DNA from: Candidatus Woesearchaeota archaeon
GTDB taxonomy: Archaea > Nanobdellota > Nanobdellia > Pacearchaeales > GW2011-AR1
DNA: 64,000 bases
Assembly (NCBI GenBank): GCA_964651965.1
Contig: CAZYZS010000004.1
Span: 18,244 to 82,243 of the forward strand
Direction: 5' to 3'
Positions within the stretch are counted from its first letter, which is position 1; each line of letters begins with the position of its first letter. A program made the translations under genes and the position numbers. The notes under the pieces are model-generated. The model had not been told where the DNA came from, did no database searches, and saw nothing but the letters and a program-made list of their open reading frames with translations. Positions 26,046 through 63,477 of this stretch are shown piece after piece.

Positions 26046-26159
26046 TGCGGGGAGTAGGAATCGAACCTACGCAGGCACTAAGCCACTAGGTCCTAAGCTT
26101 GGCTTTTTTTAAGAATTTCTTAAAAAATCTAGCCCGTTTGACCGCTCCGGCATCCCCGC
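26046..26159 (-). tRNA. tRNA-Leu (UAG) with a 30-nt non-canonical intron between positions 30/31 (26099..26128)
   Basis: Hand fold: acceptor GCGGGGA/TCCCCGC, long variable arm GGC-TTAGT-GCC, T arm GTAGG-TTCGATT-CCTAC. The BHB has bulge AGA, a 4-bp helix GGCT/AGCC, bulge AAG and an inner ~10-bp hairpin. The spliced anticodon arm is CTAGG-CTTAGGA-CCTAG. Confidence 0.75.
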
Positions 26160-38327: not shown

Positions 38328-39263
38328 TTATAACATATCGGCTTCCCATTGACCTTCATCGACTGTTGAGTAGGCTTGTGTTGATAAATTGGAATGAAGA
38401 TAGAGCAAGCAAAAATAAAGCTTTTCTTGTCCTTCATTTCCATTATTTTTGGTATAATTTCCTTTAGTTAGATTAGCCACCATAACTTGTATAAATTCGC
38501 CCGCCATCATTCTAGCTGTATTGTTGCATTCTGTTGGTGGAGAACCTCCTGTATTCCAGTGTACTGAGAAATTGCCAGCATATATTAGTTCGGTGTTATC
38601 TGTTTCTCCTCTAAGATGAGTGGCATTAAGTGTTATGTTTGCAGAGGGAAAATTTCCACTATTATTTAATAGGAGAGGATCGTTGGTGGAAGTGCTGTTC
38701 CATGCTCCAGGAGAGACTCCTGACCACGTTAAAAGAGAAGGGCCACCTAGAACTGATTGCTGTTCTCCAACGTCTTGTATCTGCGTTGTATTGATTGCTG
38801 CGTTAGAAGCGTTATCTTTTATATAGGCATTTATAGTCCAGGTATCATTTGCATCCCACCACCACATGGTTACATTGCAGGTAAAATTAGCATAGTCTCC
38901 TTCATAGTCTGTGACTTTGCAGCTGGCATTTGTTCTTGTATCTTCGTTTGTGAAACTAAGGTTGACTTTGGCTGTGCTTAGATTAAGATTTTCTACCCCA
39001 ACTGGGATATACACAGTAAAGTTTATAATAGCCTCGCTGTAGTCAGGGCCTTCGTTTATTGTAACTGCATCGGTTTGGTTATAAACTGTTATTATTTCTG
39101 GGCCGCCTACTGTTATGTTCAAATCAAATGGGACTGTTGTTGCTTTGCCTGTTATTGTTTTTTTAACCCAGTCAAACCAGCTTGCTGAAACTAGCGATAA
39201 AAGTAAAATTCCCATTACTCCTAGAATTAATATAAGGCTCTTTATTTTACCCTCTCTTTTCAT
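38328..39263 (-). CDS. Secreted protein (311 aa), paralogous to the membrane-proximal ectodomain of the 1808-aa giant
   Basis: ITVYNQTDAVTINEGPDYS, GDYANFTCNVTMWWWDANDTWT and VGEQQS align with ITVYNQSLAVTINEGPDPS, GDYANYTCNITMWWWDVNDTWT and VGEQLS in ORF 47036..52462. Confidence 0.6.
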   Translation of the reverse strand: MKREGKIKSLILILGVMGILLLSLVSASWFDWVKKTITGKATTVPFDLNITVGGPEIITVYNQTDAVTINEGPDYSEAIINFTVYIPVGVENLNLSTAKVNLSFTNEDTRTNASCKVTDYEGDYANFTCNVTMWWWDANDTWTINAYIKDNASNAAINTTQIQDVGEQQSVLGGPSLLTWSGVSPGAWNSTSTNDPLLLNNSGNFPSANITLNATHLRGETDNTELIYAGNFSVHWNTGGSPPTECNNTARMMAGEFIQVMVANLTKGNYTKNNGNEGQEKLYFCLLYLHSNLSTQAYSTVDEGQWEADML

Positions 39264-47035: not shown

Positions 47036-50000
47036 TTAATCCTTTATTGTTCTGTTGTAAATTGTCCATATATTCCTCTCATCTCTGTTTAATAGATTGG
47101 CTATTTCTATGTATCTTAATTGTTTTTCTTTAAGATAGCTTATTATTGCTTCTAATGCTGTTAATTCTCCTGAGAATATTGACAATGGAATTTCGATGCC
47201 TTTTCTTATCTCTAGCTTTTCTGGCATTTTCTCTCTTGCTTTGTTATAAGATGCCCAGACTGTTCTCTCGTTTCTATTTATTATTTGTGATATCTCATGA
47301 TAAGTTAATTGCATATTTTCTTTAAGATACTTGACAACAGCCTCTAATCCTCCCAATTGTTTTGTGAAGATGCTTAGAGGGACGGAGACTTTATCTTTTA
47401 TTTCTTTTAGAGTTATTTCTGGCTTTATTTCTTCTTTTGTTATCTTCTTTGCTTTTTTGCTTATCTTGTTATAAATTGTCCAGATGTTTCTCTCGTCCCT
47501 GTTTAATAATTCTGCTATCTCTTTGTTTCTAAACTCCTTTTCTTTAAGGTAGTTGATTATTGCTTCTAAGGCTGTTAACTCTGTACTAAAGATTGATAAT
47601 GGAACAGAAATTCCTTTTTCTTCTTTCTCTTTTACTTTTAATTTCTCTGGCATCTTTTCTCTTGCCTTGTTATAAGATGCCCAGACTGTCCTTTCATCTC
47701 TGTTGATTAATTGAGATATTTCATGATAAGTTAATTGTAAATTTTCTTTAAGATACTTAACAACTGCCTCTAAGCCCCCTAATTGTTTCGTGAATACACT
47801 TATAGGTATTTTTTCTTCTCTTAGCTTTCTTAGTTTAGTAAACAAAACGGCTGCTCTTTTCTTTTTCTTTCTACTTCTGACTACTGCCAATACTGTTAAG
47901 CTCGCGAGTAGATCTACTTCCCAAGATCCTTCTTTTGCTGTAGAAAAAGCCTGTGTTTGAGTTAAGTCGCTTCCAACTATCTTTAAGCAAAAGTAGAATT
48001 CTTCTTGTGCAGTTCCATCGCCTCTGGTATAGTTTCCTTTTGGAAGTGTTGAAGATGCTATCTGTGTAAAAAGGCCATGCTGCATAGAAGTTGCTGCGCA
48101 TTCAGGTTTTAAAGGGCCTGTTTCTGTTCCAATAGAGAAATTTTCTGCCCATAAATATTTAGTATCGTCTGCTTCTCCTCTTAGATTAGTTGCATTTACT
48201 GGGAAATTGATTAAAGGAACATTTCCTATGTTGTTTATTTTTAGAGAGTTGCTTGCTGTTTGATTTTCTGAACCGGGCATAAGTGCTTGCCAGGTTATGA
48301 ATGGGACACTTGCATTTATTATGGATAACTGCTCTCCTACTTCTTGTATTGTTTCATTCACTGCAGAAGCTCCTCCTATATCTTTTATTTGAACATTGGC
48401 TGTCCAGGTATCATTTACATCCCACCACCACATTGTAATATTACAGGTATAATTTGCATAATCTCCCGAAGATTGTTTTTCTTGGCATGAACTAACGTTT
48501 CTTAATTCCTCACTCGGGAACGACATATTTGCATAGGAAGTTGCATCGTCGAGATCTGCTGCAGAGTCGGGATCATAAGCTGTGAAATTAATTTCTGCAA
48601 AACTAGGGTCTGGACCTTCGTTTATTGTAACTGCTAGGCTTTGATTGTAAACGGTTATTATTTCTGGGGCGGTGTTTAGGATTGTTAATTTGGAAGAATT
48701 TACCCAAGAACTATAGTCTGAGCCGTCGTGAAGTCTTATTCCGCAGCTCCAGTTATCTCCTTTGGTTGTGTTGGTATTATGAAGAGAAGCATTGAAAAGA
48801 GTTCCAGAATCATAGCTGTTGTTGTAATCAAATCTGAACTGATAAGAATTTTCTTTGTACCATTCTACTGAGACATTCAATGAATTAGAATCAGGGTCAG
48901 AAATTGTGGCTCTGCACCATAAATCTTGGAGAGTTTTGTTGCTTCCATCTGTGGAGTTTATATTTACTATCGGATTATTTGGAGCATTTCCAGTATTAAC
49001 TGTAAACTCTATTTGTTCAGTGTTATTTATGTTGTTCACAGTATCGTTGCACCAGAACTTGGCAGTAAACGAGTCTTCTTTCATTGTTGTGTTTGTAAAA
49101 TTAAAATAAGTATCATTATATCTGGTCATCGTATAATTATATTCCCAGTTATTTATTGTAAACTTGCAATTGCTTATGTTTTCATTAGAAGAAACATTGA
49201 ATTCGATAGTAGTTGTGGTGTAAGTTGTGCTTTCAGGACTTTTTATTACAATATTCGGGGCAACTGTGTCAACTGCAAAACTTACAATATTGGAAGAAGC
49301 ATTCATATTTCCTGCTGTATCGTTGCATGCAAAGACAATTGAATGCCCTCCTTGTGTCATTGTTGTGTTTGTAAAATTAAAATAAGTATCATTAAACCTC
49401 GTCATTGTTATATTTGGCGAGCCATCTAAGCTGAATCCGCACCAGCTCGAGTTTTCATTTAAACTTACATTAAAGCTCATTGTTGTTGATGCATAAGTCG
49501 TATTGGTAGGAGAAACAATAGTCATAAGAGGTTTAGTTGTATCAACTGCAAATGCCTTTGTTTCTGTATTATTAGTATTGTTTAGTGTATCATTGCACCA
49601 GAACTTGGCAATGTAACTTCCCTCAGGAACCGAACTATTGGTAAAATTAAAATAAGTATCATTATATCTAGTCATTGTATAATTAGATTCCCAATTATTT
49701 ATTGTAAACTTGCAGAAGGATAAGTTCTCGTTGGAAGAAACATTGAAGTTTATAGTTGAGGTGCTGTAAGTTGTATTAGTTGGGCTTTTTATTATAATAT
49801 TTGGGGCAACTGTATCTTGGCTGTATCCTATCTTAACGTATAGATAAGAAGCTGCGTTAATAGAGGCATTGTATCCGGTATTTGTTCTCATATCACGAGA
49901 GGCAATTGGTGTGGAGTAAGTGGCATCTGTTCCGTAATAAGTAAAGTTCATGTAATACTCGCTTCCGTCGAGAGACGCCCAGCTGAAATTCAAGCTACCA

Positions 50001-52462
50001 GTTTGGGCAGTATCTATGTGGTACTCTAGATATAACGTTCTTGGGTTTTCAGAGGCATTCCAGGAATCAACTGCTAAATGGTAATGTGTTCCATCAGTTA
50101 TGTTGGAATAAAATTCTGAGTACTCTGAAGGCGGAGGTTCGCTTTCAATATCGTAGGCATCAAATCCTGATGTAGAATCTGGATTAGTTTTAAGAAAAAC
50201 GCTTGCTGTATAGCTATTTATGGTCCCAATTATCTCAAGATTTAAGTTAGGGTCAATTACATAGTCTAATTCAACTGAGCCGAGGATTTTTAAATCAAAA
50301 GAGTTGTAACTTTCGCTTCCTAAATTATTCAAGTAAACTCTGTACCATCCTTCTTCACTAATATTTTCAAAAGAAGTTATTAGTTCGCTGCTGTCTTTTG
50401 CATACACTTCAATTCTGGAATTTTCAGAACCTCTTGCATATATTTTTATATCGCTGGATTTGGTTAGATTCTCTTCAAAAGTTAATCTAACATACTCGTT
50501 GTTTTTTATTGTCCCACTCCAGATTCCGTCAATAGCTTTAACTTCGGGATAGATATCAGAAATAAAATTTCTGTTTTCATCCAAGTGTTCTGCTTGAATT
50601 ATGTTTATTATCAGAAGATAAGACTGGTTGGATAAATGAGGAACATTCCATTCAATGTAATCGACTAGACCATTTTGATTAGTGTCATAGGCCTTAATCT
50701 GAACTCTTTTGTTTTCTGTTTGATGATATAGAGCTATCTGGTTTATTGGAACTTCTTTAGGAAGAGTTGTATATGCTAGGATATTTTCATATCCCAAGTT
50801 ATCAGGGGCTGAAACTATGATCTGCTTTTCGTTTTTAGAAATGTTTATCTCTGTTGCTTCTGGGGCAGGGGTCTCATAAGTTATTTCATATTTAGAGGCA
50901 TTGTCTTCAATGACTACATCAACTGATTGCGGAGTTTCTTCTGTTGTAACCGCCCTTCCTGTTAAAGCTGAAAAAAGCCGGGTGAAAAATCCCGGTTTTT
51001 GATTTCCTTCAATTGCTTGGCCTGTAATGCCAGAAGTTATAGAAAAAGCAGCAGGCTCGCTTTCTTCTTGTATTTTATAGGACTCGATTTTGTTAACTTC
51101 TATATTTTCAGCTTCTTTTGGAAGCTCTACCTTTATTTTTCCTGGCTTATCTAATTCTATTCTCTTTGTCCAATTTACAGGCTGGCCTATGACTATTCTT
51201 GAGAAGGTGGTGTTAATTAGGGTTATGTTTGTATCTGTAAGGTTTATAACAGATTCGTTTAATTCTATTGTTTCATTTATTTTTGCTTCACTTAGGATTT
51301 CGTAGATTATTTCTTCCAAGAAAACAGAAGCATTGTTAATTTCAATTCTTAGGCTATATGAAGATTGGTTGAGATTTAGAGAGGAAAGGTCGCAGGTTTC
51401 TTCGCATATTTTGTTGAATCTTCTTATTTCTTTTTGTTTCGGGATTTCTTCTTTTTCTTCTGGTGGAACAGTTGGTTGGGTTATATTTGTTTCAGTTATA
51501 TTTTCTGGCTGCACTTCAGTTACATTTTCTTCTTGTATTACTTTTGAAGCTGTTTGGTTTTCTTCTGGTAAAATTTCAGAGACAGCTGGCTCTTCACTTC
51601 GTTCAGAGGAGCTAGCAGGCTCTTCGCCTTGCTCAGAGGAGACAGAGGGCTCTTCTTGGGGTTGACTCGGAGCAATTTCTTGCTCTTTTGGAGCCCCCTG
51701 TTCTTCTGAATAGGATAGTGATTCTTGTGGGGTTTCTGAAGGAGTAGAAGCTGAAGCCTCCTGTGAGGCTTTGGATGGTAAGTCAGTTGAACTTGTTTGT
51801 GAGGATTCTGGCGGAGATGATTCGGTTGAAGAAGATTCAGAAGAGGCAGCAGAAGAGGATTCAGAAGCTGCTGCTTCATCAACAGCCAAGCCAGTCAGGC
51901 TTGCTTGTTTTGCTTTTAGGTTAGAGCTATCGAGAATTAAGTAATTATCCAGATATATTTTAACTTCTCCTTCGCCTTCAATTAATCCTGAAAGTCTTGC
52001 AGAGAGCAACTGGCCTGGATTTTGAATCTGCCATTCGTAAGTTTCAGAAGAAGAGAAAGTTAGATTAAGTTTTTCTGTGTACTCTTGTTTTTGTTCCTGT
52101 ACAACTAAACCTAGCATAGTTCCCCGGAAATAAAATAAAGTTACAGACACTAAGGAAATAAAAAGGAGAAATAAAAAAACAGCCAGTATCTTTTTACCTG
52201 TGGATTTTATTTTTTCTTTTTCTATTTTTGATTTGCAGTCTTCTATGTAAGAGTCATAGATTTTCAGCCACTGGCCGAGTGTTTTTCCGTCTCTTTTTTT
52301 GTTCAGCAGTTTTTCGTATTCAGAATAAGTTATTTCTCGGTTTTCACACTTATTTTTTAACCCATTAATATAATTAAGAACTTTACTTTTGTTTTCTTTT
52401 GCTTGTTTGACTCTGCTTCTAAGTTCAACTAAGATACTTCCCTCTTTTTGAGTCAATCCCAT
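47036..52462 (-). CDS. Giant surface protein (1808 aa) with a C-terminal tail of four HTH repeats
   Basis: N-terminal ~90 aa, then TM ILAVFLFLLFISLVSVTLFYF. A Ser/Pro/Glu-rich linker follows, then the module shared with ORF 40626, three ~95-aa repeats and the module shared with ORF 38328. Next come the short hydrophobic LLASLTVLAVV plus RSRKKKKR, and finally 4 HTH-like repeats. Confidence 0.7.
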   Translation of the reverse strand: MGLTQKEGSILVELRSRVKQAKENKSKVLNYINGLKNKCENREITYSEYEKLLNKKRDGKTLGQWLKIYDSYIEDCKSKIEKEKIKSTGKKILAVFLFLLFISLVSVTLFYFRGTMLGLVVQEQKQEYTEKLNLTFSSSETYEWQIQNPGQLLSARLSGLIEGEGEVKIYLDNYLILDSSNLKAKQASLTGLAVDEAAASESSSAASSESSSTESSPPESSQTSSTDLPSKASQEASASTPSETPQESLSYSEEQGAPKEQEIAPSQPQEEPSVSSEQGEEPASSSERSEEPAVSEILPEENQTASKVIQEENVTEVQPENITETNITQPTVPPEEKEEIPKQKEIRRFNKICEETCDLSSLNLNQSSYSLRIEINNASVFLEEIIYEILSEAKINETIELNESVINLTDTNITLINTTFSRIVIGQPVNWTKRIELDKPGKIKVELPKEAENIEVNKIESYKIQEESEPAAFSITSGITGQAIEGNQKPGFFTRLFSALTGRAVTTEETPQSVDVVIEDNASKYEITYETPAPEATEINISKNEKQIIVSAPDNLGYENILAYTTLPKEVPINQIALYHQTENKRVQIKAYDTNQNGLVDYIEWNVPHLSNQSYLLIINIIQAEHLDENRNFISDIYPEVKAIDGIWSGTIKNNEYVRLTFEENLTKSSDIKIYARGSENSRIEVYAKDSSELITSFENISEEGWYRVYLNNLGSESYNSFDLKILGSVELDYVIDPNLNLEIIGTINSYTASVFLKTNPDSTSGFDAYDIESEPPPSEYSEFYSNITDGTHYHLAVDSWNASENPRTLYLEYHIDTAQTGSLNFSWASLDGSEYYMNFTYYGTDATYSTPIASRDMRTNTGYNASINAASYLYVKIGYSQDTVAPNIIIKSPTNTTYSTSTINFNVSSNENLSFCKFTINNWESNYTMTRYNDTYFNFTNSSVPEGSYIAKFWCNDTLNNTNNTETKAFAVDTTKPLMTIVSPTNTTYASTTMSFNVSLNENSSWCGFSLDGSPNITMTRFNDTYFNFTNTTMTQGGHSIVFACNDTAGNMNASSNIVSFAVDTVAPNIVIKSPESTTYTTTTIEFNVSSNENISNCKFTINNWEYNYTMTRYNDTYFNFTNTTMKEDSFTAKFWCNDTVNNINNTEQIEFTVNTGNAPNNPIVNINSTDGSNKTLQDLWCRATISDPDSNSLNVSVEWYKENSYQFRFDYNNSYDSGTLFNASLHNTNTTKGDNWSCGIRLHDGSDYSSWVNSSKLTILNTAPEIITVYNQSLAVTINEGPDPSFAEINFTAYDPDSAADLDDATSYANMSFPSEELRNVSSCQEKQSSGDYANYTCNITMWWWDVNDTWTANVQIKDIGGASAVNETIQEVGEQLSIINASVPFITWQALMPGSENQTASNSLKINNIGNVPLINFPVNATNLRGEADDTKYLWAENFSIGTETGPLKPECAATSMQHGLFTQIASSTLPKGNYTRGDGTAQEEFYFCLKIVGSDLTQTQAFSTAKEGSWEVDLLASLTVLAVVRSRKKKKRAAVLFTKLRKLREEKIPISVFTKQLGGLEAVVKYLKENLQLTYHEISQLINRDERTVWASYNKAREKMPEKLKVKEKEEKGISVPLSIFSTELTALEAIINYLKEKEFRNKEIAELLNRDERNIWTIYNKISKKAKKITKEEIKPEITLKEIKDKVSVPLSIFTKQLGGLEAVVKYLKENMQLTYHEISQIINRNERTVWASYNKAREKMPEKLEIRKGIEIPLSIFSGELTALEAIISYLKEKQLRYIEIANLLNRDERNIWTIYNRTIKD
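47039..47845 (-). repeat. Tandem ABAB coding repeats (~200 bp each) encoding four HTH-like units
   Basis: A units: ..FTKQLGGLEAVVKYLKEN(L/M)QLTYHEISQ(L/I)INR(D/N)ERTVWASYNKAREKMPEKL. B units: ..LTALEAII(N/S)YLKEK..(K/I)EIA(E/N)LLNRDERNIWTIYN. The A1/A2 DNA appears ~85% identical by eye. Confidence 0.75.
48990..49815 (-). repeat. Three tandem ~285-bp coding repeats (~95-aa beta-rich modules); boundaries approximate
   Basis: Each repeat contains (S)PT/ESTTY..T(T/I)..FNVS.NEN.S.C.F...N.TMTR(Y/F)NDTYFNFTN...F.CNDT. Confidence 0.65.
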
Positions 52463-52713: not shown

Positions 52714-52786
52714 GCACGGATGGCGAAGTGGCTAACGCGACCGCCTGCAGAGCGGTTATTCATGGGTTCGAGTCCCATTCCGTGCT
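52714..52786 (+). tRNA. tRNA-Cys (GCA), intronless
   Basis: Hand fold: acceptor GCACGGA/TCCGTGC, anticodon stem ACCGC/GCGGT, loop CTGCAGA, T arm ATGGG-TTCGAGT-CCCAT. Confidence 0.85.
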
Positions 52787-52886: not shown

Positions 52887-53039
52887 ATGGTAAAAAAATC
52901 AAAGATAAGCGTTTCAGTTGATGAAGAAACATTGGCTAAAATAGATGAGAATATTTTTAAGAGAAAATTCAGGAACCGAAGCCATGCCTTTGAATTCTGC
53001 ATAAATGAAGTATTGGGAGGGGAAAATGAAAACCAGTGA
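52887..53039 (+). CDS. Ribbon-helix-helix (CopG/Arc-like) mini-protein, 50 aa (below the ORF-track cutoff)
   Basis: MVKKSKISVSVDEETLAKIDENIFKRKFRNRSHAFEFCINEVLGGENENQ. Its 3' end overlaps the kinase start at 53026. Confidence 0.6.
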   Translation: MVKKSKISVSVDEETLAKIDENIFKRKFRNRSHAFEFCINEVLGGENENQ

Positions 53040-54696
53040 AAATGTATTAAATGAAAGAAGAACAGGGAGTGAAAGAGCCCCTGTGGACAAGCAAGCTTCT
53101 ATAGATGAAGTAATAGTAAGTGATACGTTCATTCCGACAGGCAAACACTTAGGCGATGGGGCTTGGGGGAGCGTTAGTTTATATAGAGGTCCTGGCGACC
53201 AAATGTGGGCACTTAAAATATTTGCTCCAAATGAGGATGGAAGAAGGCAGATGGAAGAAAGAGGGTGGACAGAAGAAGATGTAATGATGAGGGAAGCGAT
53301 TCCAATCGGAGCAGCTTCTTACAATGTAACCCCAAGAATAATCCAAACAGATAAAAACGGAAAAATGTTTGTTGCTATGCCCGCTTATGACTGTGATCTT
53401 TCGAAAGTACTTCACACCCTGACTCTTCGGGAATCCTTAGGCGTAGCAAAGAATATTGCAACTGCATTGACTTATTTTCATAATAGAAGAGTGAATGGAA
53501 ATAGATTCTACGATGCAAAAGATAAAAAAAATCAAGGCAACGGAAATGCTCATGGAGATGTGAAGCCATCAAATGTACTTCTCAATATAACGTATGATGA
53601 AGATGGGAGAAGACAACAGATCCGGGCTGATTTAAGCGATCTAGGATCAACAACCTGCATTTCAATTGGCGGAAGCGGAAAGAAAAGAGGCCCTCATGGA
53701 GACGTTAATTACAGACCTCCTGAATGCTCTGATGGGGATGCAAGCCCAAGTACAAGAGCAGACGTCTGGGGCTTAGGAGCAATTTTATACGAAGCACTTA
53801 CTGGAGAAAGCATCTATAATGGAATAGACAGAGACAACACAGATCAATTTAAATTGAATTCGAGAATAAAAAAGAAAATAAGAAAAGTTCCGTGGAGATT
53901 AAGGTCTTTTTTAAGAAAATGCCTTGCGGTTAATGAATTTGAAAGATTTCGCAGCGGGGATGAAGCTTTGAAAAGCTTAGATCAAGTTATAGACAATTTG
54001 GATACAAAGAAAGTTGTAAACACCCACTTTAAGAAATGGTGGCCCTTGGGTATACCTTTGGCTTTAACTGGATTGCTTATTTATGGTGCAGTAACTCATG
54101 AGCCAAAAAGATTGGAAATGCCTAGAACAAATATCCAGGGAATGGTTTATCCTCCTGAGAAACCCGGTGAAGAGCAAAGAATAGAATTTGAAAAAGAAAC
54201 TATTGATGACTTGCCAAGTGCAGCGAATGATGAATTGGTATTTCGTGGTATAATTCAAAATGCTAAATTATCTACTAATAATAGAATTGTTGCCTATCTT
54301 TTGAAAGCATATGCGCAAGCACATTCTTCTAGAAATACTATGAGGCCGCCAGGGGCCTATACAGATACACAATTCAGTACATATATTGCTTATACAACTC
54401 ACGATGAGAGGCAGTTTGCGGGATTGAGCGGAACTCCTTGGCCTGTCTGGGCGAAGTCAATTGAGGTTGCATTAAACCAAGCTAAAACAGCAGATGGAAA
54501 AGTTGATTTGGAAGATGTAATGACTATCTCAAGAGTAGGAGTAGACTTAGTAAACCAAGCAAAGAGAGCCTCAGGAAGTTTTGATTATGAAGTTTATAGG
54601 ACCGCCAAAGACAGCAAAGGAAAGTATATAATCCCAGAAAAAGAGCAGAGTTTTATTAATACCTGGCTTGCCTATTACAACGCAGATATAGATTAA
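53026..54696 (+). CDS. Hanks-type Ser/Thr protein kinase with a TM segment and a C-terminal extracytoplasmic domain
   Basis: GDGAWGSVSLY, WALKIF, HGDVKPSNVLL, DLSDLGS, YRPPE and DVWGLGAILYEALTGE, then TM WWPLGIPLALTGLLIYGAV. The ATG at 53026, preceded by ggagggg, is preferred to 53005. Confidence 0.8.
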   Translation: MKTSENVLNERRTGSERAPVDKQASIDEVIVSDTFIPTGKHLGDGAWGSVSLYRGPGDQMWALKIFAPNEDGRRQMEERGWTEEDVMMREAIPIGAASYNVTPRIIQTDKNGKMFVAMPAYDCDLSKVLHTLTLRESLGVAKNIATALTYFHNRRVNGNRFYDAKDKKNQGNGNAHGDVKPSNVLLNITYDEDGRRQQIRADLSDLGSTTCISIGGSGKKRGPHGDVNYRPPECSDGDASPSTRADVWGLGAILYEALTGESIYNGIDRDNTDQFKLNSRIKKKIRKVPWRLRSFLRKCLAVNEFERFRSGDEALKSLDQVIDNLDTKKVVNTHFKKWWPLGIPLALTGLLIYGAVTHEPKRLEMPRTNIQGMVYPPEKPGEEQRIEFEKETIDDLPSAANDELVFRGIIQNAKLSTNNRIVAYLLKAYAQAHSSRNTMRPPGAYTDTQFSTYIAYTTHDERQFAGLSGTPWPVWAKSIEVALNQAKTADGKVDLEDVMTISRVGVDLVNQAKRASGSFDYEVYRTAKDSKGKYIIPEKEQSFINTWLAYYNADID

Positions 54697-55610
54697 ATTT
54701 CTTTTTTTATAATCTCGCTTAAAATCGGACTTGTTCCGATTTGAATCGTTCTGAATAGTTCTTTGATGTAACAGTGTACAACCGCAGATTTTCCTTTGCT
54801 TTTTTCAATTAGCTCAAGGCATTTTCCAAATTGATATTCTTTTTTCAGACTATTTATTTTGTGAACTGCTTTTATGTCCTCATTAAAATAAGCGTCTTGG
54901 TAGAGCTGAAACTGTTCTTTAAGCTCTTGGAGAAGCATGAGAACTGATTTGTCTGTTTTGACCTTGTTCTCTTTTGCATATTTATAGAGATAAAAATATG
55001 CGTGCTCTATATGCATTAAAAAAGTTAAAAGCTCCCATTCCAGAACAGGGTCTTTTTCATATTTCTCTTTAATTAAAGTCCTTCTGCAGAATAAAATAAA
55101 ACTATCTTGGTTATTTCTTATTTCTTCTATTTCTTTCCAGTTTTCGTATTTGCTATTAGTAAAATCTTCTAGAAGGATGTCTTGTGTCTCTTCTATTATC
55201 ATGAAGACCTTTCTCATCATTACCTCATATTTTTGCCCTGTCGGCTCTGAAATATTCTCTATTTTGCATTGTTTCTCTGATTTCTCGGTTATTTCAAATC
55301 CAAGAAGAAGATTTTTTGTTGTCTGTTTTATTTTCTTAATCAGTTCTTGGTCAGTATTTTTTAAGATTATAGAGTCAAAGCCCCTTCTATAGGCATGAGT
55401 CAGTATAACTTTTATATCTTCTCTATTTTGTTCTGTTATTTCTATTGTAATTTCTTTCTTTTCCTTAACCTCGCTTCCAATTATCAGGGAATTTTCTACT
55501 TCTTTTACATCAACTATATCCCCTTCGTGTAACTTTTTCCGGTCTACCCATTTCTTAGGCAGGTATATTGTATAGCCTCCCCCTCCCTGTTTTATGAGTC
55601 TTCTTTCCAT
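54693..55610 (-). CDS. AbrB/SpoVT-domain plus PhoU-like regulator
   Basis: The N-terminal MERRLIKQGGGGYTIYLPKKWVDRKKLHEGDIVDV is a swapped-hairpin AbrB domain. The helical remainder resembles archaeal PhoU-domain regulators. Confidence 0.55.
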   Translation of the reverse strand: MERRLIKQGGGGYTIYLPKKWVDRKKLHEGDIVDVKEVENSLIIGSEVKEKKEITIEITEQNREDIKVILTHAYRRGFDSIILKNTDQELIKKIKQTTKNLLLGFEITEKSEKQCKIENISEPTGQKYEVMMRKVFMIIEETQDILLEDFTNSKYENWKEIEEIRNNQDSFILFCRRTLIKEKYEKDPVLEWELLTFLMHIEHAYFYLYKYAKENKVKTDKSVLMLLQELKEQFQLYQDAYFNEDIKAVHKINSLKKEYQFGKCLELIEKSKGKSAVVHCYIKELFRTIQIGTSPILSEIIKKEI

Positions 55611-55744
55611 AAACTATACAGGAAATGTGTGTTTTTAAAGTTTTCTATTTTTGATATCAGTAATATTAATAATATCAGAAAGATATTAAATCGTACCGGT
55701 TTGTATTACCATTGTATAGTAAATACATAATAAATGTATACAAA

Positions 55745-56470
55745 ATGGAAACAAAAAAAACAAACTGGAAATCGAGAATAAAAATGGCCGCTGTTACAGG
55801 ACTGGCTGCCCTACTTGGAACAGTCAATACCTGCTTTGCAGAAAGCCCAAAAGTCTATGTTGAGTCTGGAGTTGTATCTGCATATGTAGGCAGACATGGA
55901 TGGTTCAAAGAAGGGCTGGTAAATCAGAATATGATATCTGCTGACTTCAATAATGGCCTATCTGCTTTTGCATGGCAAAACTATGATTTTAACAGTGGGA
56001 AAGTAAACGAAATAGACAGCGGGATTATGTATTCAAGAAAGATAGAAGGGAACTTATCTGCGAATGTCGGGTTTCAGCACTGGAATTATCTGAATGGGGA
56101 ATTTGGAGATTGCGATAATGTTGTAAAAGCAGGGGCAAAACTAACTGGGCCGGTAGTAGATGTTCAATACGACTTTACACATATAATCGGCCATAATACA
56201 ACTCCTACAGGAGACAGGCATTACTTTAAGGTTTCAAAGACTTTTCCATTAGGAAACCTTGGGAAAAATGAGATTGCTGTAACCCCATCGCTAGGCGCTT
56301 CGCTTCTTGATGACTACTATGGAAAAACTGGACTGTCGCAAGTAACCCCTGGTGTGAATCTTTCAGTAAAAAATGGAAGATGGAGCTTCAATGCTTTTGT
56401 AAATGCTCAGGATGGAAAGCTTTTTAATGATTTGTTATGGGGCGGAGTGAGTTTGGGGTATAGTTTTTAG
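55745..56470 (+). CDS. Signal-peptide protein resembling a bacterial outer-membrane beta-barrel (TorF-like pattern)
   Basis: Signal AAVTGLAALLGTVNTCFA|ESP, about 12 amphipathic alternating strands, and a C-terminus GGVSLGYSF ending in Phe. The ATG at 55745 is preferred to the TTG at 55712. Confidence 0.5.
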   Translation: METKKTNWKSRIKMAAVTGLAALLGTVNTCFAESPKVYVESGVVSAYVGRHGWFKEGLVNQNMISADFNNGLSAFAWQNYDFNSGKVNEIDSGIMYSRKIEGNLSANVGFQHWNYLNGEFGDCDNVVKAGAKLTGPVVDVQYDFTHIIGHNTTPTGDRHYFKVSKTFPLGNLGKNEIAVTPSLGASLLDDYYGKTGLSQVTPGVNLSVKNGRWSFNAFVNAQDGKLFNDLLWGGVSLGYSF

Positions 56471-56479
56471 GAGGAAAAA

Positions 56480-56848
56480 ATGAAATTCAATGCAAATTAC
56501 TTAGTTTCATCAAAAGAAGGTTTAGAGTACTTAGAAGGTCGTTTGGATTTATTGAGCAGACATTGTTCATTCCCCCGAGATGAAAAAACCTCTTTAGATG
56601 TATTTGTTAGGCAAGATGATTTAGGGGTAGTTCAAATATTCCCAATAAGTTCTCCTATGCTGGCCCTTTCTTATCGCTCAAGAGCCATTGATTCTCATCC
56701 TACTGAACAGCCATCAGACCTGTTGGTAACACCTTCTCAAGGAGGAGACAGGGTTACAATTAGGGAACAGAATGATAACGTAACTTATTATCAATTCCAC
56801 AATGCTCAAGCTAGCATTAACGATGTTTTTGGAAGGAGTTCAGCATGA
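56480..56848 (+). CDS. Hypothetical protein (122 aa)
   Basis: aggagga lies 8 nt upstream. No motif recognised. Confidence 0.45.
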   Translation: MKFNANYLVSSKEGLEYLEGRLDLLSRHCSFPRDEKTSLDVFVRQDDLGVVQIFPISSPMLALSYRSRAIDSHPTEQPSDLLVTPSQGGDRVTIREQNDNVTYYQFHNAQASINDVFGRSSA

Positions 56849-57294
56849 GCGTTCTTAGAACCATCGGCAATAAATTGGCTGGAAGGAGAAAAACAACAGA
56901 AATAAATCTTTCTTTAGATGCTGCCCTCGGAGTTGCAAGATCGGCTCGAGGTCCTTGGGATATTTCTTTTAGTAAGGGCTGGAGAAATTATTTTGGAGCA
57001 AATATCCCGAGTGAAGAAGCTGCAAGATTCTTATCTAAGCAATTTGAAGATTCAGAAAAATATCCAGTTGATGCCACTTACCAGGTATTCACAGGCCAGA
57101 CAGATACAAGGGTCTATCTTGATGTAAGAGAAAGGGTTGTGAGAGAAAGACTCGGAGAACTTACTGTTTATGATACTGCATTTCCTGAGACTGAGGCTAC
57201 TTTAACTTATGCCTTAAAAAACCAGAACCCGGGAAATACTGGGAGATGTCGAGATAAATTAGCTGATACATTACAGCACCTGAGGTTGCATTAA
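56845..57294 (+). CDS. Hypothetical protein (149 aa)
   Basis: ATGA overlap with the upstream gene. No motif recognised. Confidence 0.45.
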   Translation: MSVLRTIGNKLAGRRKTTEINLSLDAALGVARSARGPWDISFSKGWRNYFGANIPSEEAARFLSKQFEDSEKYPVDATYQVFTGQTDTRVYLDVRERVVRERLGELTVYDTAFPETEATLTYALKNQNPGNTGRCRDKLADTLQHLRLH

Positions 57295-57295
57295 A

Positions 57296-57610
57296 ATGGA
57301 GCCAAGATATACTCCTGAAGGACTTCCGGTACTGACTGAAGCTACTGTGGAAATGCATTTCATTGAAGAAGCAAGACTTGACGCGGGAGGCGAGGAGAGT
57401 CTAATGAGAGCTATGGAAACAAGAGCCAAAGAAATTTTCGGACAAAATCCAGTTCTTGAAAAAGCATTGAATCGGTTTTGCAGGAAGTATGGAATTGAAG
57501 GTGAAGAAGAATTGCTTGTGCAAGCCGCAGGAGTTTATGTCGCTCAACTGTATAAAAGTCAAGCGGAAGTAAACAATTTAGAAGATGTAAGGCGGAGGTG
57601 GCTAAGATGA
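57296..57610 (+). CDS. Hypothetical protein (104 aa)
   Basis: Starts 1 nt after the upstream stop. No motif recognised. Confidence 0.45.
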   Translation: MEPRYTPEGLPVLTEATVEMHFIEEARLDAGGEESLMRAMETRAKEIFGQNPVLEKALNRFCRKYGIEGEEELLVQAAGVYVAQLYKSQAEVNNLEDVRRRWLR

Positions 57611-58233
57611 GAGAAAAACAAACAATAAGGACAAGGATAAGAAACACTTTAGCTGGGATTTTAATTGGAGCTTCTAGCTTGGTTAGCCCAATGCAAGCAG
57701 AAGAAAAGCCTCTGACAACTATGATGAATACAGAAATAACTTATACAGAGGGAAATAGTATTCTAAGAATAAGGCCTTATGTTTACACTGCTCCTTCTGA
57801 AAATCAGAGAATGGAATTAATGTTAGGAAGAAAATTTGGAGATTTCTCAGCGTATGCTTATTTTAAGGCAGATAATCAAGATAACAGCTTGGCAGGAACT
57901 AGATTCGATTATGGAAAAAATTTCTTAGATGGCAAATTAAATGCAAATTTTCAGATTAGATTATTTTCGGGATTAACAGAAGGGACAAAAGATGAACTTT
58001 ATGTTATTCCAACTGCAGATTATAAAATTAATGATAAGTTGAAAGTGGGGGTTTTAGGATATGCTGTGATGAGAGAAACAAAAGACCCTGTCTTTTATCT
58101 GGGGCCTTCAGCAACCATTCAGTTAGCAGATAACCTTAGTTTCATGGCTTCTTATGATTGGGATTTGCTTGGAAATTATGGAGATCTTCTTTACTTAAGT
58201 TTGAACTATAAGTTCGGAGGACAGAAAAAATGA
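57598..58233 (+). CDS. Second signal-peptide protein with a beta-barrel-like strand pattern
   Basis: Signal LAGILIGASSLVSPMQA|EEKP, about 10-11 alternating strands, and the near-terminal LYLSLNYKF followed by GGQKK. Confidence 0.45.
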   Translation: MAKMREKQTIRTRIRNTLAGILIGASSLVSPMQAEEKPLTTMMNTEITYTEGNSILRIRPYVYTAPSENQRMELMLGRKFGDFSAYAYFKADNQDNSLAGTRFDYGKNFLDGKLNANFQIRLFSGLTEGTKDELYVIPTADYKINDKLKVGVLGYAVMRETKDPVFYLGPSATIQLADNLSFMASYDWDLLGNYGDLLYLSLNYKFGGQKK

Positions 58234-58382
58234 GTTTGAATTCTTTTACAATCACAAAGAGAATTGCCAAACATGGCAGTCAGTCAATTATTGTTATCCC
58301 TAATGTTCTTAAAGAGCAGCTTAAGCCAAAAATGCTGGTGAAAATTAGAATTGATGTTTTGAAGGAGGAAGAAATAAAATGA
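58230..58382 (+). CDS. AbrB/SpoVT-like mini-protein, 50 aa (below the ORF-track cutoff)
   Basis: MSLNSFTITKRIAKHGSQSIIVIPNVLKEQLKPKMLVKIRIDVLKEEEIK. It is a paralog of 63467..63625 and has ATGA-type overlaps at both ends. Confidence 0.6.
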   Translation: MSLNSFTITKRIAKHGSQSIIVIPNVLKEQLKPKMLVKIRIDVLKEEEIK

Positions 58383-59143
58383 ACATTAATGATTTTTTTG
58401 GTAATCTTTTTATTAGGCTTGGCTTAAATATGAAGGCAGATTCTCCTGAGTTTCGAGCGGATGTAAGAAAATTAGAAGATGCTGTTAAGGATTTTGATAA
58501 TTTCCACAGAGCTCTTCTTCCGCCAGATCAAGCAAAAATTATAGATGATGCTTTTGCCGAAGTAAGAAACATGGTTTTGGAGGGGAGAGTAGATGAGGTT
58601 ACAAATCCCGAAAAGGGGCCCCTAAAAAAAATCTATGAGGTTTCAGTGGCTGCCAAAGGATTATTTGTTCCTTATCTTTTGACTTGGAGCGTCCGCTATC
58701 ATCTAAGGGTAGTAGACAAAGCCCTAACCCAAAATAAAGTTAAGGATTTTTTTGAAATGCCTTATGAGCCCTCATTTGGGCCTGCACAGGTTATGGATCT
58801 TGCAATTATTGGAGAATTAAAAAACCCTCAAGTCGACGTTTTTATAAAAGAGGGAAATGATCTCTATACTGAAAATTATAGTTGGCCCAAATTAAGAATA
58901 ATAAGAGATGACAAGTCTCCAGCAGTAAGAGTTGAAAATGTCAAGCCGAAGGTTGTTACAGGTGAAAGAGAGATTTGGACAGGAGACTATACTGCATTAA
59001 CAGATTCTATTTATGACAAAGTGAAAGGGGAGGGTTTTATGTTAGTAAAATCTCCTTTGAATTTCCAAGAATCTGCTAGACACGAGATGATTACTAGGAG
59101 TTTTTTTTCGGAATTTCTGAAATACGAGGCGGGAAGAAGATGA
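58379..59143 (+). CDS. Hypothetical protein (254 aa)
   Basis: Translationally coupled to the AbrB-like mini-gene. No motif recognised. Confidence 0.45.
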   Translation: MNINDFFGNLFIRLGLNMKADSPEFRADVRKLEDAVKDFDNFHRALLPPDQAKIIDDAFAEVRNMVLEGRVDEVTNPEKGPLKKIYEVSVAAKGLFVPYLLTWSVRYHLRVVDKALTQNKVKDFFEMPYEPSFGPAQVMDLAIIGELKNPQVDVFIKEGNDLYTENYSWPKLRIIRDDKSPAVRVENVKPKVVTGEREIWTGDYTALTDSIYDKVKGEGFMLVKSPLNFQESARHEMITRSFFSEFLKYEAGRR

Positions 59144-59144
59144 A

Positions 59145-61073
59145 ATGGTCCGGCAAGTTATTCATTGGAGTAAAGGACTTATTCTCAAGAATTTAAAAGA
59201 TTTAAATGAACAAAGAGCAGATTTACGAGATAATAATGCTCAAGAAAATTATAGGAAACTTTATCGTGCAGCATGCTGGCATCTTGGAAGCTGGAGAAAA
59301 GCCTTGAAAGAGGCGGGGATACGCTATAGAGATATCGAGGAAAGAGTTTATTCTGAAAGAGGGGAAAAAGAAAAAGAAAGATTACTGGCGGACTTAAGGG
59401 CGGCTTTTGAAGAAGGGGCTCTGTTAGACCGCGGGAGTATAATAAAAAATCCTGATTATAGAACTCTTTATTGGTCAGCTCAGAAATTTTATTCTGGTAG
59501 GACTTTTTGGGAAGATGTTTTAACAGAAGCAGGTCTTGACCCAAGAAAAATTGTTAGGCAGAAAAAATGGACTAAAGAAAGAGTAAAAGAGGCGATTCTA
59601 AAAAGAAAAGCAGAAGGCAAACCCCTCAATGCTGCAGCATTAAAAGAAGACATGAGTTTGGCCCATGCTATTGATAATCATTTTGGCTCTCACCAAGAGG
59701 CCCTGAGATACTCTGGAATAAATCCAGATGGAATTATTTTTTCTAGAAGGTATACTAACGAGCAATTAGTAGAATACCTACAATCATGCCATAGTTCTGG
59801 GATAAGCTTAAATCCTGCTAGGATTTTTAAAGATAGAAAAAGAAGCAAAAGGAGCAGAGAGAGATATAGATTTTATTTAGCAGCTTCAAGAAGATTCGGA
59901 GACTGGAGAGCCGCACTTTTATTTTCTGGGATAAATCCTTTGCAGTATTATACAAGGCAAAAATGGGATGAAAAAAAGGTAGTAGAAGAGATAAAGAGAA
60001 ATTTTGAATCAGGAAAGCCTCTTAATTCTTCTTCTGTAATCAAGGGGAATAATTCACTGTATAAAGCAGGGTCAAGATATTATGGCTCATGGGAAAAAGC
60101 AATAGTGGCGGCGGGCCTTGACTATTCTCAGATAAGCCAAGAGAAAGAATCTTTAAGCGAAGCGGAGATAGTAGCAAAAATAAAGGAGCTTGCTTCTCTT
60201 GGGGGGGATTTAAGTATTACTTCAATTGTAGAAGATGAAGACTTCTCTATTAGGAGATTGGTCAGTCAATCCTACAATCGATTTGATGGTGGATGGGAAG
60301 AAGCTATCAGCAGAGCAGGATTAGACTATGATGCTATAAGAAAGAATCGCAGAAAATACAAATTTAAAGAACTCGAAGAGGCTGTAAAAGAGTGGGAAAG
60401 AAATGGAAGAAGTTTAGATGTTTCTCTAGTAAGGGTCGACCCTGAAACTAAGAACATATACCGGGCTGCTGTGCGAAGATTCAATAGCTGGTACGGATTT
60501 CTAGAAAGAATTGGTGTTGACATATCTAAATACCATGCTAGAAATGACTGGAAAAATGGGGCAGGGGTTTTAGAAGCATTAAGGGAGCGATTTCCTTCAG
60601 GGGTAGTCACAGGAGTCCGCGGAATAGACCAAAATCTTGCAGCTGCAATTTACGCCTACTTTCCAGGAGGGATTAGGGAAGCAGCTCAAAAAGCAGGAAT
60701 GGTTTATTCTAGAGGCGGGGGACTTGATAGAAAACTCCTTGAAGAACAAGATGGCTCTGTTGAAAACTTGTACTTAAGTAATCAGCAGTTTCTTCAAGAG
60801 ATAGTTGATAAAGTTTATTATGGGGCTATTGGAAGAGGAATTCCTTCAGGAGATAAAGATGATTTAATGCAGGAAGCTGCTATTCTTTTTATGAGTTTAT
60901 TGAGAAAGAAACCTTCAAAGGCAGATTTAAGAGAATATGTTTCGGGGCCTATTTATCGGAAGTTAATAGAGCTCAATAAAGAGCGCGCTAAGCAAGCTAG
61001 AAAAGAGCATTTATGGGGAGAAGAAGTTTATTTTGATCTTGCAGTATCTGACTTGGCTGAAAAAGAAGAATAA
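59145..61073 (+). CDS. Protein of eight ~70-aa helical repeats (homing-endonuclease-associated-repeat-like) with a sigma-70 region-2-like C-terminus
   Basis: Repeat ends: LGSWRKALKEAGIRY, GRTFWEDVLTEAGLDP, FGSHQEALRYSGINP, FGDWRAALLFSGINP, YGSWEKAIVAAGLDY, DGGWEEAISRAGLDY, FNSWYGFLERIGVDI, PGGIREAAQKAGMVY. The tail is DDLMQEAAILFMSLLRK...YRKLIELNKERAKQ. Confidence 0.55.
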   Translation: MVRQVIHWSKGLILKNLKDLNEQRADLRDNNAQENYRKLYRAACWHLGSWRKALKEAGIRYRDIEERVYSERGEKEKERLLADLRAAFEEGALLDRGSIIKNPDYRTLYWSAQKFYSGRTFWEDVLTEAGLDPRKIVRQKKWTKERVKEAILKRKAEGKPLNAAALKEDMSLAHAIDNHFGSHQEALRYSGINPDGIIFSRRYTNEQLVEYLQSCHSSGISLNPARIFKDRKRSKRSRERYRFYLAASRRFGDWRAALLFSGINPLQYYTRQKWDEKKVVEEIKRNFESGKPLNSSSVIKGNNSLYKAGSRYYGSWEKAIVAAGLDYSQISQEKESLSEAEIVAKIKELASLGGDLSITSIVEDEDFSIRRLVSQSYNRFDGGWEEAISRAGLDYDAIRKNRRKYKFKELEEAVKEWERNGRSLDVSLVRVDPETKNIYRAAVRRFNSWYGFLERIGVDISKYHARNDWKNGAGVLEALRERFPSGVVTGVRGIDQNLAAAIYAYFPGGIREAAQKAGMVYSRGGGLDRKLLEEQDGSVENLYLSNQQFLQEIVDKVYYGAIGRGIPSGDKDDLMQEAAILFMSLLRKKPSKADLREYVSGPIYRKLIELNKERAKQARKEHLWGEEVYFDLAVSDLAEKEE

Positions 61074-62633: not shown

Positions 62634-62676
62634 AGATTATGTATAAAATATGTATAAACTATATAGTAGTACTAAA

Positions 62677-63477
62677 ATGGATGCAAAAAAGAAAACAAAA
62701 GCTAATAAATTGGCTATATTCCTGCTTGCTGCAGGATTGGCAGTTGCTGGTGTTAATACAGGTTTACGGATAATAGCACGTAACGCTATGTCTCATGCAG
62801 GATTCAGGGAACAGGATTTTTCACGATCTTTAACAAATCCTTTAACCTATCTAACTAGGGGGGAGTACAAGGGATTTAGAAATTGGAATCTAGATTCAAG
62901 CGATGACCCCTTTAAAAGAGATTTGATAGTATACGAGCCAGATCCCTTTGATAAGCTTCCAAAAAGACTGCATAATATGGATTTGAATGCTGTATATCTA
63001 GGTTTACAAAAAAATCCATTACCCTTTTCTCGATATCAACCTACCAGACTTACTGGTTCAGATAAAATCACTTTCTATAGTATAAAGGACTTTATTCCCG
63101 ATCCCGGAAGATTGATTGGAAATCGGATAGTTGGCGGGACAGCCCTAGAAAGAATACTAGGAATGAAAGAAGGAGATGCTTTATCGATGAAGGACATATT
63201 CCGTACTTCAATGGCGCCTACTTTTACAAATGTTGATCTTGGAAACTATACCTTATCTTTTGGAAGAGATAAAAGCGGGATTTATACAAGTATTTATGAT
63301 GTCTGGGACTTTGTTCCTGATTCAGGTCATTTTAAAAATTTTAATTCAGGATTAGAAAGATTAGGATCCAAAATCCTGCCAAAAATTGGAACACCAATTC
63401 ATTTCTATGACCGATTTTACTGGAAAGATTATGGTTTTGATGAAAATAAACAAGGAGACATTCAAAATGGAAACTAA
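62677..63477 (+). CDS. Membrane-anchored protein (~266 aa), unknown function
   Basis: Start ATG 62677 (MDAKKKTKANKLAIFLLAAGLAVAG) is chosen by analogy with the duplicated leader; the track start is 62650. Confidence 0.5.
   Translation: MDAKKKTKANKLAIFLLAAGLAVAGVNTGLRIIARNAMSHAGFREQDFSRSLTNPLTYLTRGEYKGFRNWNLDSSDDPFKRDLIVYEPDPFDKLPKRLHNMDLNAVYLGLQKNPLPFSRYQPTRLTGSDKITFYSIKDFIPDPGRLIGNRIVGGTALERILGMKEGDALSMKDIFRTSMAPTFTNVDLGNYTLSFGRDKSGIYTSIYDVWDFVPDSGHFKNFNSGLERLGSKILPKIGTPIHFYDRFYWKDYGFDENKQGDIQNGN

Follow-up and report, generated by a model that had tools for sequence, protein, structure and literature searches.

A conserved gene cassette in a Pacearchaeota-like contig encodes two predicted outer-membrane-type beta-barrel proteins

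Two signal-peptide proteins with a predicted beta-barrel fold

The stretch of DNA analysed here (the window) comprises 64,000 nucleotides (nt) of contig CAZYZS010000004.1, from a Candidatus Woesearchaeota archaeon, and carries a gene cassette in which two open reading frames (ORFs), A and B, encode proteins with signal peptides and with the predicted fold of bacterial outer-membrane proteins (OMPs), the transmembrane beta-barrel. The gene order of the cassette is conserved and comprises a ribbon-helix-helix (RHH) protein, a membrane Ser/Thr kinase, a divergent AbrB-like regulator, a near-invariant putative operator, A, optional small ORFs, the protein p104 and B (Table 1). Coordinates are positions in the window unless a locus label is given, and the labels L001 to L020 designate retrieved contigs that carry relatives of the cassette genes. 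An earlier note on this DNA had drawn attention to A and B as signal-peptide proteins with beta-barrel hallmarks in an archaeal contig, and this was confirmed by the ORFs, the AlphaFold2 models, the Foldseek and Pfam searches and the archaeal markers. We are confident that both proteins are OMP-type barrels native to an archaeal genome.

Inspection of the sequences revealed that both signals consist of a basic n-region, an Ala/Gly/Leu h-region and a cleavage motif between Ala and Glu. In A the N-terminus up to this site reads METKKTNWKSRIKMAAVTGLAALLGTVNTCFA (ending in NTCFA, with ESP following), and in B the signal ends in LVSPMQA, with EEKP following. In both AlphaFold2 models the signal segment forms a separate helix of low confidence. 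The model of A was built on an alignment of 3 sequences and has a predicted local distance difference test score (pLDDT) of 78 and a predicted template modelling score (pTM) of 0.69; it shows the signal helix and 13 DSSP strand segments, or 12 strands if residues 156-172 are taken as one bulged strand. It is the weaker model of the two, since the pLDDT of the five models of A runs from 78 down to 36.5. Among the matches listed by Foldseek against the PDB, A had transmembrane beta-barrels only, namely NanC (2wjq, TMt 0.62) and VhGalP (8xua, TMq 0.58/TMt 0.65), and also Tsx, FapF and OmpG. The strands present a hydrophobic/aromatic face with 6 of 76 residues charged and a polar face with 17 of 78 charged, and the protein terminates with LLWGGVSLGYSF, whose final residues are GVSLGYSF.

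The model of B, obtained from a 19-sequence alignment, has a pLDDT of 86.4 and a pTM of 0.76 and shows the N-terminal (signal) helix followed by 11 strands of 10-16 residues. An alternative start of the gene, GTG at 57598, would give a protein of 211 amino acids (aa). Again the listed Foldseek matches were transmembrane beta-barrels only (VDAC, OmpT, OmpF, KdgM), the best size-normalised one being the 12-stranded KdgM (4pr7, TMq 0.51/TMt 0.61, root-mean-square deviation (rmsd) 3.5 Å). Charged residues make up 6 of 65 positions on the hydrophobic/aromatic face of the strands and 18 of 66 on the polar face. The C-terminus reads LYLSLNYKFGGQKK, in which LYLSLNYKF is followed by the tail GGQKK. 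The strand formed by residues 159-174 of this model is long and kinked at an invariant G-P-S, and the Foldseek matches with the lowest E-values are the odd-stranded VDAC and Tom40, with low TM-scores.

Profile searches gave evidence independent of the models. A itself had no Pfam or NCBIfam match (E ≤ 0.1), and the faint Pfam matches among 34 members of its family fell mostly in OMP families (YaiO 3, Gcw_chp 2, Autotransporter 2, OMP_b-brl 1, Porin_4 1). The earlier note had likened A to TorF/Gcw_chp (TIGR02001, PF09694). This was the right broad class, but A does not belong to that family, for which only 2 of the 34 relatives gave sub-threshold matches (best E 3.4e-4). B matched Phenol_MetA_deg (PF13557) with 24.6-24.7 bits against a cut-off of 22, the aligned part comprising only residues 127-188 and profile positions 154-223 of 242. 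In the B family (n = 19), matches at E ≤ 0.1 were to the bacterial outer-membrane barrel families DUF2490 (15/19), Phenol_MetA_deg (9/19) and OMP_b-brl_2 (5/19); the best E for DUF2490 (PF10677) was 4.8e-4, and B of the window scored 15.1 bits with it, below the cut-off of 29.8. The C-termini resemble the beta-signal of OMPs, as had been proposed in the earlier note: A has the terminal motif V-x-L-x-Y-x-F (V-S-L-G-Y-S-F), the last residue is Phe in 98 of the 149 A relatives listed, and the B family has L-S-L-x-Y-K-F, with Y-x-F exactly terminal in 9 of its 19 members.

If the barrels were artefacts of shallow alignments, A and B could instead be soluble secreted beta-sandwich or jelly-roll proteins, such as S-layer-associated or adhesin modules. 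This is what the 3-sequence alignment of A, the unequal confidence of its five models and the odd strand count of B might suggest, and sequence-profile searches of the PDB with the A, B and D families (D is described below) gave no match (A and B at E ≤ 1). However, the alignment behind B contains 19 diverse sequences and four of its five models reach pLDDT 84-86, the profile evidence leads to OMP families for both proteins, and no non-barrel fold is present among the listed Foldseek matches. The structure prediction that the earlier note had recommended as a check for soluble folds returned barrels, as far as prediction reaches, and we consider a wrong fold very improbable.

A and B are not paralogues. 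BLASTP and hhalign align the signal-peptide region only, the two families are unrelated, and we rejected a common origin.

Unrelated barrel families, as defined by their mature parts, nevertheless share one distinctive signal peptide (window 55745-55850 and 57607-57700; L017 4591-4700, 5295-5400 and 6829-6930; L002 9324-9430). A long basic n-region, K-x-S/T-F/L/W-R/K-x-R/K-I-R/K, precedes a Gly/Ala/Leu h-region, and cleavage is between Ala and Glu. The signal peptides of B and of family C, from a second cassette described below, are 46% identical over 50 residues (E 2e-8), and those of the A paralogue and of family D are 50% identical over 38 residues (E ~1e-6 to 1e-7), whereas the remaining secreted proteins of the window have ordinary Leu/Ile-rich signals. 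Significantly similar signal peptides on non-homologous mature domains suggest dedicated targeting, and the shared peptide may be a dedicated sorting signal.

Archaeal residency of the cassette

The contig is genuinely archaeal (Pacearchaeota-like) and non-chimeric. In addition to TFB and rpS3Ae (Table 1), the window encodes SRP54, FtsY and RecJ/Cdc45-like DHH proteins, and four of its tRNA matches (86-136 nt) exceed the standard size and are for that reason read as intron-containing. The nearest named relatives of A and B belong to metagenome-assembled genomes (MAGs) of Candidatus Pacearchaeota and Woesearchaeota. Several samples and assemblers (JGI, Logan, NCBI, ENA) independently yielded the identical A-B region, and orthologous cassettes, 46-85% identical, occur in other Pacearchaeota and Woesearchaeota contigs, where they are flanked by archaeal ribosomal and replication genes. 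A 103-kb Pacearchaeota contig, for example, carries Gins51, then the cassette, and then NDK, rpS3Ae, rpL44e, SRP54, RIO1 and Cdc45, and the cassette is also found in Pacearchaeota RBG_13_36_9 and in a Woesearchaeota MAG. Composition is continuous as well, without a tetranucleotide or GC break in the window. Tetranucleotide frequencies of the cassette and of the rest of the window correlate with r = 0.971 (mean of random 8.2-kb segments 0.954), and those of the A-B region with 0.927 (mean of random segments 0.913), so that the continuity check proposed in the earlier note detected no break at the cassette.

The earlier note had also considered a chimeric segment. An assembly chimera or bacterial contamination, in which either 52-64 kb or the barrel genes alone were misjoined to an archaeal contig, would account for the presence of barrels of a type that is otherwise bacterial or organellar, and the most distant listed relative of B does adjoin a TonB-dependent receptor gene. 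This option is refuted by the same gene order beside archaeal core genes in at least four independent lineages or assemblies, and it is also at odds with composition values equal to or above the random means and with archaeal-type genes on either side of the cassette. The probability that we assign to it is practically negligible. A viral or mobile origin was likewise not supported: no relatives were found in IMG/VR, PHROG and PADLOC returned only generic kinase and repressor matches, and neither the cassette ORFs scanned nor the gene-caller annotations contained an integrase.

Distribution and origin of the two families

A profile search of 1.84 billion cluster representatives (50% identity) revealed 234 A-family clusters at E ≤ 1e-3 and 139 at E ≤ 1e-10. 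The members that could be placed were archaeal in nine of nine cases. The family was detected in four GTDB genomes by a scan with a 4-sequence alignment (two Pacearchaeota, one Woesearchaeota and one unclassified 'archaeon'), one cluster carries the name Woesearchaeota, and three contigs have archaeal markers nearby, including TrmB, pilins with class-III signals, ELP3, deoxyhypusine synthase and rpS6e; for contigs without names, taxonomy was taken from the neighbouring genes. In the archaeal contig L011 (10001-13490 and 14992-16518) genes for five small proteins whose signal peptides are of class III (type IV pilin-like) come after the A-family gene, and a PilB/T2SSE-type ATPase gene lies ~1.5 kb further downstream, past two genes on the opposite strand. 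The barrel is thereby connected with a surface-filament locus.

The B family is small, with 20 clusters in a word-indexed search, and its source-named members (two clusters) are Pacearchaeota. Its close members occur in Pacearchaeota-type contigs only and have conserved motifs of their own. The most distant relative listed (29% identity, E 6e-20) is the one beside the TonB-dependent receptor gene, a bacterial-type context. The horizontal acquisition that the earlier note had suggested thus holds in part. For B, the similarity to bacterial OMP profiles and this one relative speak for it, and the gene looks like an old acquisition from bacteria, judging from these sequence comparisons; the A family is large, and all nine of its placed members are archaeal.

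Organisation and putative regulation of the cassette

The 50-aa RHH-like protein, S50, is conserved upstream of the kinase in L001/L013, L014 and L016 (79-84% identity), and the kinase gene adjoins the AbrB-like gene in L001, L014, L016, L002, L008 and L017. The kinase has an N-terminal kinase domain, one hydrophobic segment (residues 346-364, WPLGIPLALTGLLIYGAVT) and a C-terminal domain of ~190 aa that would be extracytoplasmic. The match of the AbrB-like regulator to Pfam MazE_antitoxin (E 4.2e-5, 23.8 bits) is slightly below the cut-off of 24.7. Its orthologues in L001, L014 and L016 are 57-79% identical, and paralogues with 32-34% identity head the second type of cassette.

The intergenic element that separates the regulator from A contains repeated ATATCAG/GATAT motifs and is nearly unchanged between Pacearchaeota and Woesearchaeota loci, although the proteins encoded there share only 48-79% identity. 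Its core, GATATCAGTAATATTAATAATATCAG, occurs once in the window, with zero occurrences expected. A 38-nt version was found in four metagenome contigs, each with an AbrB-like gene adjoining it. The kinase and S50 are visible in three of them and A and p104 in the remaining one, and all four lineages were already known. The element probably serves the AbrB-like regulator as operator and divergent promoter. A scan of the cassette for bacterial-type promoters and terminators gave no excess over shuffled sequences, the models being bacterial and not applicable to archaea. We also observed that ~40 nt upstream of the ATG of the first barrel gene (ATTGTATAGTAAATACATA..ATGTATA..AAAATG) are common to both cassette types and across lineages (window 55700-55747; L017 4550-4593; L002 9283-9326; L014 15530-15572), which would fit a conserved TATA-type promoter together with a very short leader.

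The two small ORFs between A and p104, present in some lineages only, are spaced by 9 nt from A and then overlap by 4 nt; they have weak homologues in L014 and L016 and no match in Pfam, NCBIfam, PHROG or PADLOC. Orthologues of p104 (41-63% identical) immediately follow A or precede B in L001, L014, L016 and L020, and searches of the same four collections returned no family match except for a marginal one to LmuC of PADLOC (E 0.003). As it has no signal peptide, p104 would be cytoplasmic. Homologues of the 254-aa and HNH_repeat proteins are also found after B in L008. All genes from A through the HNH_repeat gene (end at 61073) run in the same direction with overlaps or gaps of 1-9 nt, and probably constitute one operon.

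Table 1. Features of the two cassettes and archaeal marker genes of the window.
Feature	Position	Strand	Size	Description
S50	52887-53039	+	50 aa	Ribbon-helix-helix-like protein; first cassette gene; overlaps kinase start; PHROG transcriptional repressor, E 3e-5
Membrane Ser/Thr kinase	53005-54696	+		Pfam Pkinase, E 2.4e-19; start of gene callers 53026
AbrB-like regulator	54693-55610	-	305 aa	N-terminal AbrB/SpoVT (MazE-type) DNA-binding domain; divergent from A
Intergenic element	55633-55689		~57 bp	Between AbrB-like gene and A; core GATATCAGTAATATTAATAATATCAG at 55653-55678
Barrel A	55745-56470	+	241 aa	Signal peptide; predicted 12-stranded transmembrane-type beta-barrel
Two small ORFs	56480-57294	+	122 and 149 aa	Without signal peptides; between A and p104; some lineages only
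p104	57296-57610	+	104 aa	No signal peptide; overlaps B start by 4 nt
Barrel B	57607-58233	+	208 aa	From ATG (all gene callers); signal peptide; predicted 11-strand transmembrane-type beta-barrel
254-aa protein and HNH_repeat protein	58379-61073	+	254 and 642 aa	Tightly packed after B; Pfam HNH_repeat, E 3e-16
p275	62650-63477	+	275 aa	Membrane-anchored protein; opens second cassette, which continues past window end (L017 676-9256)
Family C	second cassette		233 aa	Signal peptide; ends ...ISFRYLF
A paralogue	second cassette		245-247 aa	32% identity to A, E 7e-30; ends ...GASYEW
Family D	second cassette		400 aa	Signal peptide; L008 orthologue with sub-threshold OMP_b-brl match
Lipoprotein	second cassette		147 aa	Lipobox LLAGGC
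rpS3Ae	12719-13465			Archaeal marker
TFB	29698-30639			Archaeal marker

A second, paralogous cassette

The contig beyond the end of the window was read from L017 and L004, and this revealed a second cassette in the order p275, a 52-aa ORF, a 640-aa kinase, a 295-aa AbrB-like gene (minus strand) and then four signal-peptide proteins (Table 1), after which a class II aminoacyl-tRNA synthetase gene with tRNA-synt_2b/HGTP_anticodon domains is located. Among the four are further candidate barrels, and the same families also follow AbrB-like genes in L002, L008 and L014. We noted that p275 is 98% identical to L002 5003-5830, while B is only 85% identical between the same two contigs, which suggests recent exchange or strong constraint.

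Other features of the window

A tRNA-Cys gene (52714-52786, plus strand) lies directly upstream of the cassette, whose position differs between genomes: in L001 it adjoins NDK, rpS3Ae and rpL44e, which are ~40 kb away from it here. Two of the long tRNA matches, 10934-11069 (minus strand, 136 nt) and 26046-26159 (minus strand, 114 nt), are found by Rfam but not by ARAGORN and presumably contain introns, and an ORF with a LAGLIDADG domain (11186-12172, plus strand) adjoins the 136-nt match. The window also encodes giant surface proteins of 1808 and 1632 aa that have ~50% identical segments in common (listed spans 47036-52462, minus strand; 40626-45524, plus strand; 38328-39263, minus strand). 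The 1808-aa protein has C-terminal helix-turn-helix-like repeats, four of which were counted, with faint Sigma70_r4_2 matches, and a 69%-identical orthologue adjoins the cassette in Pacearchaeota RBG_13_36_9. Finally, a 138-aa ORF (31896-32312, plus strand) with a twin-arginine-type signal (TRRGFFGLVARTAAAGLAA) is Ala/Arg-rich and differs in composition from its neighbours.

Proposed location and function of the barrels

The fold class (by prediction), the signal peptides, the archaeal residency, the conserved synteny, the multi-family cassettes and the conserved cis element can be taken as established, and they are the basis of the mechanism that we propose. A and B would be exported via Sec and cleaved between Ala and Glu, after which the barrels would enter a lipid layer on the far side of the cytoplasmic membrane; an outer membrane or sheath belonging to the archaeon is the most likely candidate. 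In that layer, as monomeric barrels of ~12 strands, they would serve as passive small diffusion channels for solutes or hydrophobic compounds that the reduced-genome symbiont must import, a function suggested by analogy with KdgM, NanC and Tsx. The kinase, spanning the membrane once with its sensor domain facing outward, and the AbrB-like regulator, acting on the near-invariant operator, would together set barrel expression upon an external cue such as host contact. The membrane location, the channel function, this regulation and the route of insertion are the steps that we infer. A layer beyond the cytoplasmic membrane is proposed because an open 12-strand barrel in an energised cytoplasmic membrane would dissipate the ion gradient, and the archaeon's own layer is favoured because several families with paralogues, a lipoprotein and a shared leader have the appearance of an envelope proteome. 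Imaging has shown that some archaea, among them the ARMAN lineage of DPANN, possess double membranes, and all of these interact closely with other cells (PMC4243693).

Several observations weigh against this proposal. The five models of A, from a shallow alignment, differ widely in confidence, and a standard antiparallel barrel would not close with an odd count of strands such as the 11 assigned by DSSP in B. B of the window and several of its relatives have a basic tail of 2-5 residues beyond the terminal Phe, which is atypical for substrates of the bacterial beta-barrel assembly machinery (BAM). To our knowledge, archaea have no insertase of the Omp85/BamA type, and homologues of Omp85, Skp, SurA and Lol proteins were not seen among the window ORFs scanned, the rest of the genome not having been searched. 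The cultivated DPANN archaea imaged so far mostly have one membrane and an S-layer, and we know of no ultrastructural data for Pacearchaeota or Woesearchaeota. For these reasons we hold the proposal of an own outer lipid layer with channels only tentatively, as possible and not quite probable.

The main rival possibility, also raised in the earlier note, is that the barrels are directed at a host. An episymbiont would deliver them into a membrane of its host and thereby open a nutrient conduit at the contact site. If the host is a diderm bacterium, this would be its outer membrane, with assembly perhaps by the BAM of the host; the membrane of an archaeal host is the alternative. The conservation of a beta-signal-like C-terminus in lineages without known BAM agrees with this, as does the relative of B in a bacterial-type context together with the matches of that family to bacterial OMP profiles. 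The apparent control by a membrane kinase with an external sensor and a dedicated regulator would fit induction by contact. PorB of Neisseria, which reaches mitochondria, is a precedent for bacterial porins that move to the membrane of another organism. Genome expansion driven by horizontal gene transfer in Pacearchaeales and Woesearchaeales and possible bacterial hosts of DPANN have been discussed (PMC13473441). On the other hand, a monomeric 12-strand barrel would meet mechanistic obstacles on entering a foreign membrane from outside, reaching the periplasm of a host needs a delivery device, none of which was seen in the cassette, and no host is known. With its four or more families, several paralogues in each genome and a co-encoded lipoprotein, the set resembles an envelope proteome rather than an effector, and the archaeal affiliation of all placed A-family members argues against simple host mimicry by recent transfer. 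We therefore regard delivery into a host as unlikely, but worth serious consideration.

A and B might also be carriers of lipids or other hydrophobic ligands, that is, secreted or periplasm-like shuttles that capture host lipids and are not permanent channels. DPANN archaea generally lack lipid biosynthesis, and Phenol_MetA_deg, the sole family that B matches above threshold, is annotated with the uptake of hydrophobic aromatics. Porin-like barrels that trap lipids have been described in a bacterial predator, and Altiarchaeales may have a distant relative (PMC12228718). However, we read the near-uncharged, aromatic-rich face of the strands as a lipid-exposed exterior and the polar face as the lining of a water-filled lumen, although sequence cannot show which of them points outward. 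Moreover, the listed structural neighbours are all integral membrane barrels, and no sequence link to PopA was seen. This makes a carrier function improbable in our opinion.

The two membrane readings can each be taken to a stronger form. Pacearchaeota and Woesearchaeota episymbionts would have a dedicated, regulated set of at least four OMP-type barrel families with a shared special signal and would export them into the outer membrane of a diderm bacterial host whose BAM assembles them through the beta-signal; or, equally unprecedented, they would build a true outer membrane with a beta-barrel proteome of their own, inserted by a route other than BAM. We think it rather improbable that the barrels conform to either of these bold forms.

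Novelty and significance

OMP-type transmembrane beta-barrels and their insertion machinery are regarded as a hallmark of diderm bacteria and of organelles with a diderm ancestry, and we know of no beta-barrel proteins in the outer membranes of those archaea that have one. Searches of the full text of PubMed Central and bioRxiv found neither OMP-type barrels nor porins reported for Pacearchaeota or Woesearchaeota, the nearest published statement being the one on a possible relative of PopA in Altiarchaeales (PMC12228718). What is new here is the occurrence of the OMP-type barrel fold in a domain of life, and in a genomic setting, for which no report was found.

These data describe a diversified set of predicted barrels, conserved across lineages of a major uncultivated archaeal clade, and contradict the textbook distribution of such proteins. 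The set is accompanied by a signal-peptide class of its own, co-encoded lipoproteins and a dedicated sensor/regulator module, and it points to either an unrecognised envelope architecture with an outer lipid layer or a new route by which a symbiont opens a channel into its host. If assembly by the BAM of a host were true, an archaeon would install its own porins in a bacterium. The proteins can be cloned, and would allow tests of the make-up of the DPANN cell surface or host interface and of the insertion of barrels without BAM.

Comparison with known systems

The pore-forming Ihomp1/Imp1227 complex of Ignicoccus hospitalis resides in an archaeal outermost membrane. Ihomp1 is a small, oligomeric, alpha-helical protein and forms no beta-barrel; it comes from another phylum and is unrelated in sequence to A and B. 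What the complex shows is that a second membrane with pores is possible in archaea (PMC4243693). The porin-like lipid-trapping superfamily of the PopA type, from Bdellovibrio, is comparable in that it has OMP-like barrels and an owner that lives on other cells, and the PopA paper notes in passing a possible distant relative in Altiarchaeales, a DPANN lineage (PMC12228718). PopA differs in forming pentameric assemblies of smaller barrels, and neither a sequence match nor a top structural match to A or B was seen.

Among bacterial OMP families, B itself is linked by sequence only to Phenol_MetA_deg and DUF2490. TorF/Gcw_chp, an OMP barrel of ~230-250 residues, is of the same broad class as A, from which the A family stands separate.

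The closest structural resemblance is to the KdgM/NanC channels (KdgM 4pr7/4fqe, NanC 2wjq, VhGalP 8xua), which gave the best size-normalised matches of A and B (TMt 0.61-0.65, rmsd 3.5-5.8 Å). This resemblance is structural only, as neither the A nor the B family has a Pfam match to KdgM/NanC. The archaeal proteins differ in their host and in the 11 strands, instead of 12, of the B model, and also in their genetic context, which is a kinase and an AbrB-like regulator here and sugar-acid regulons there. The two groups have in common a small, monomeric barrel (~200-220 residues), short turns, a signal peptide and an aromatic residue at the C-terminus. By this analogy, KdgM/NanC, as passive channels for small solutes, are plausible functional analogues of A and B.

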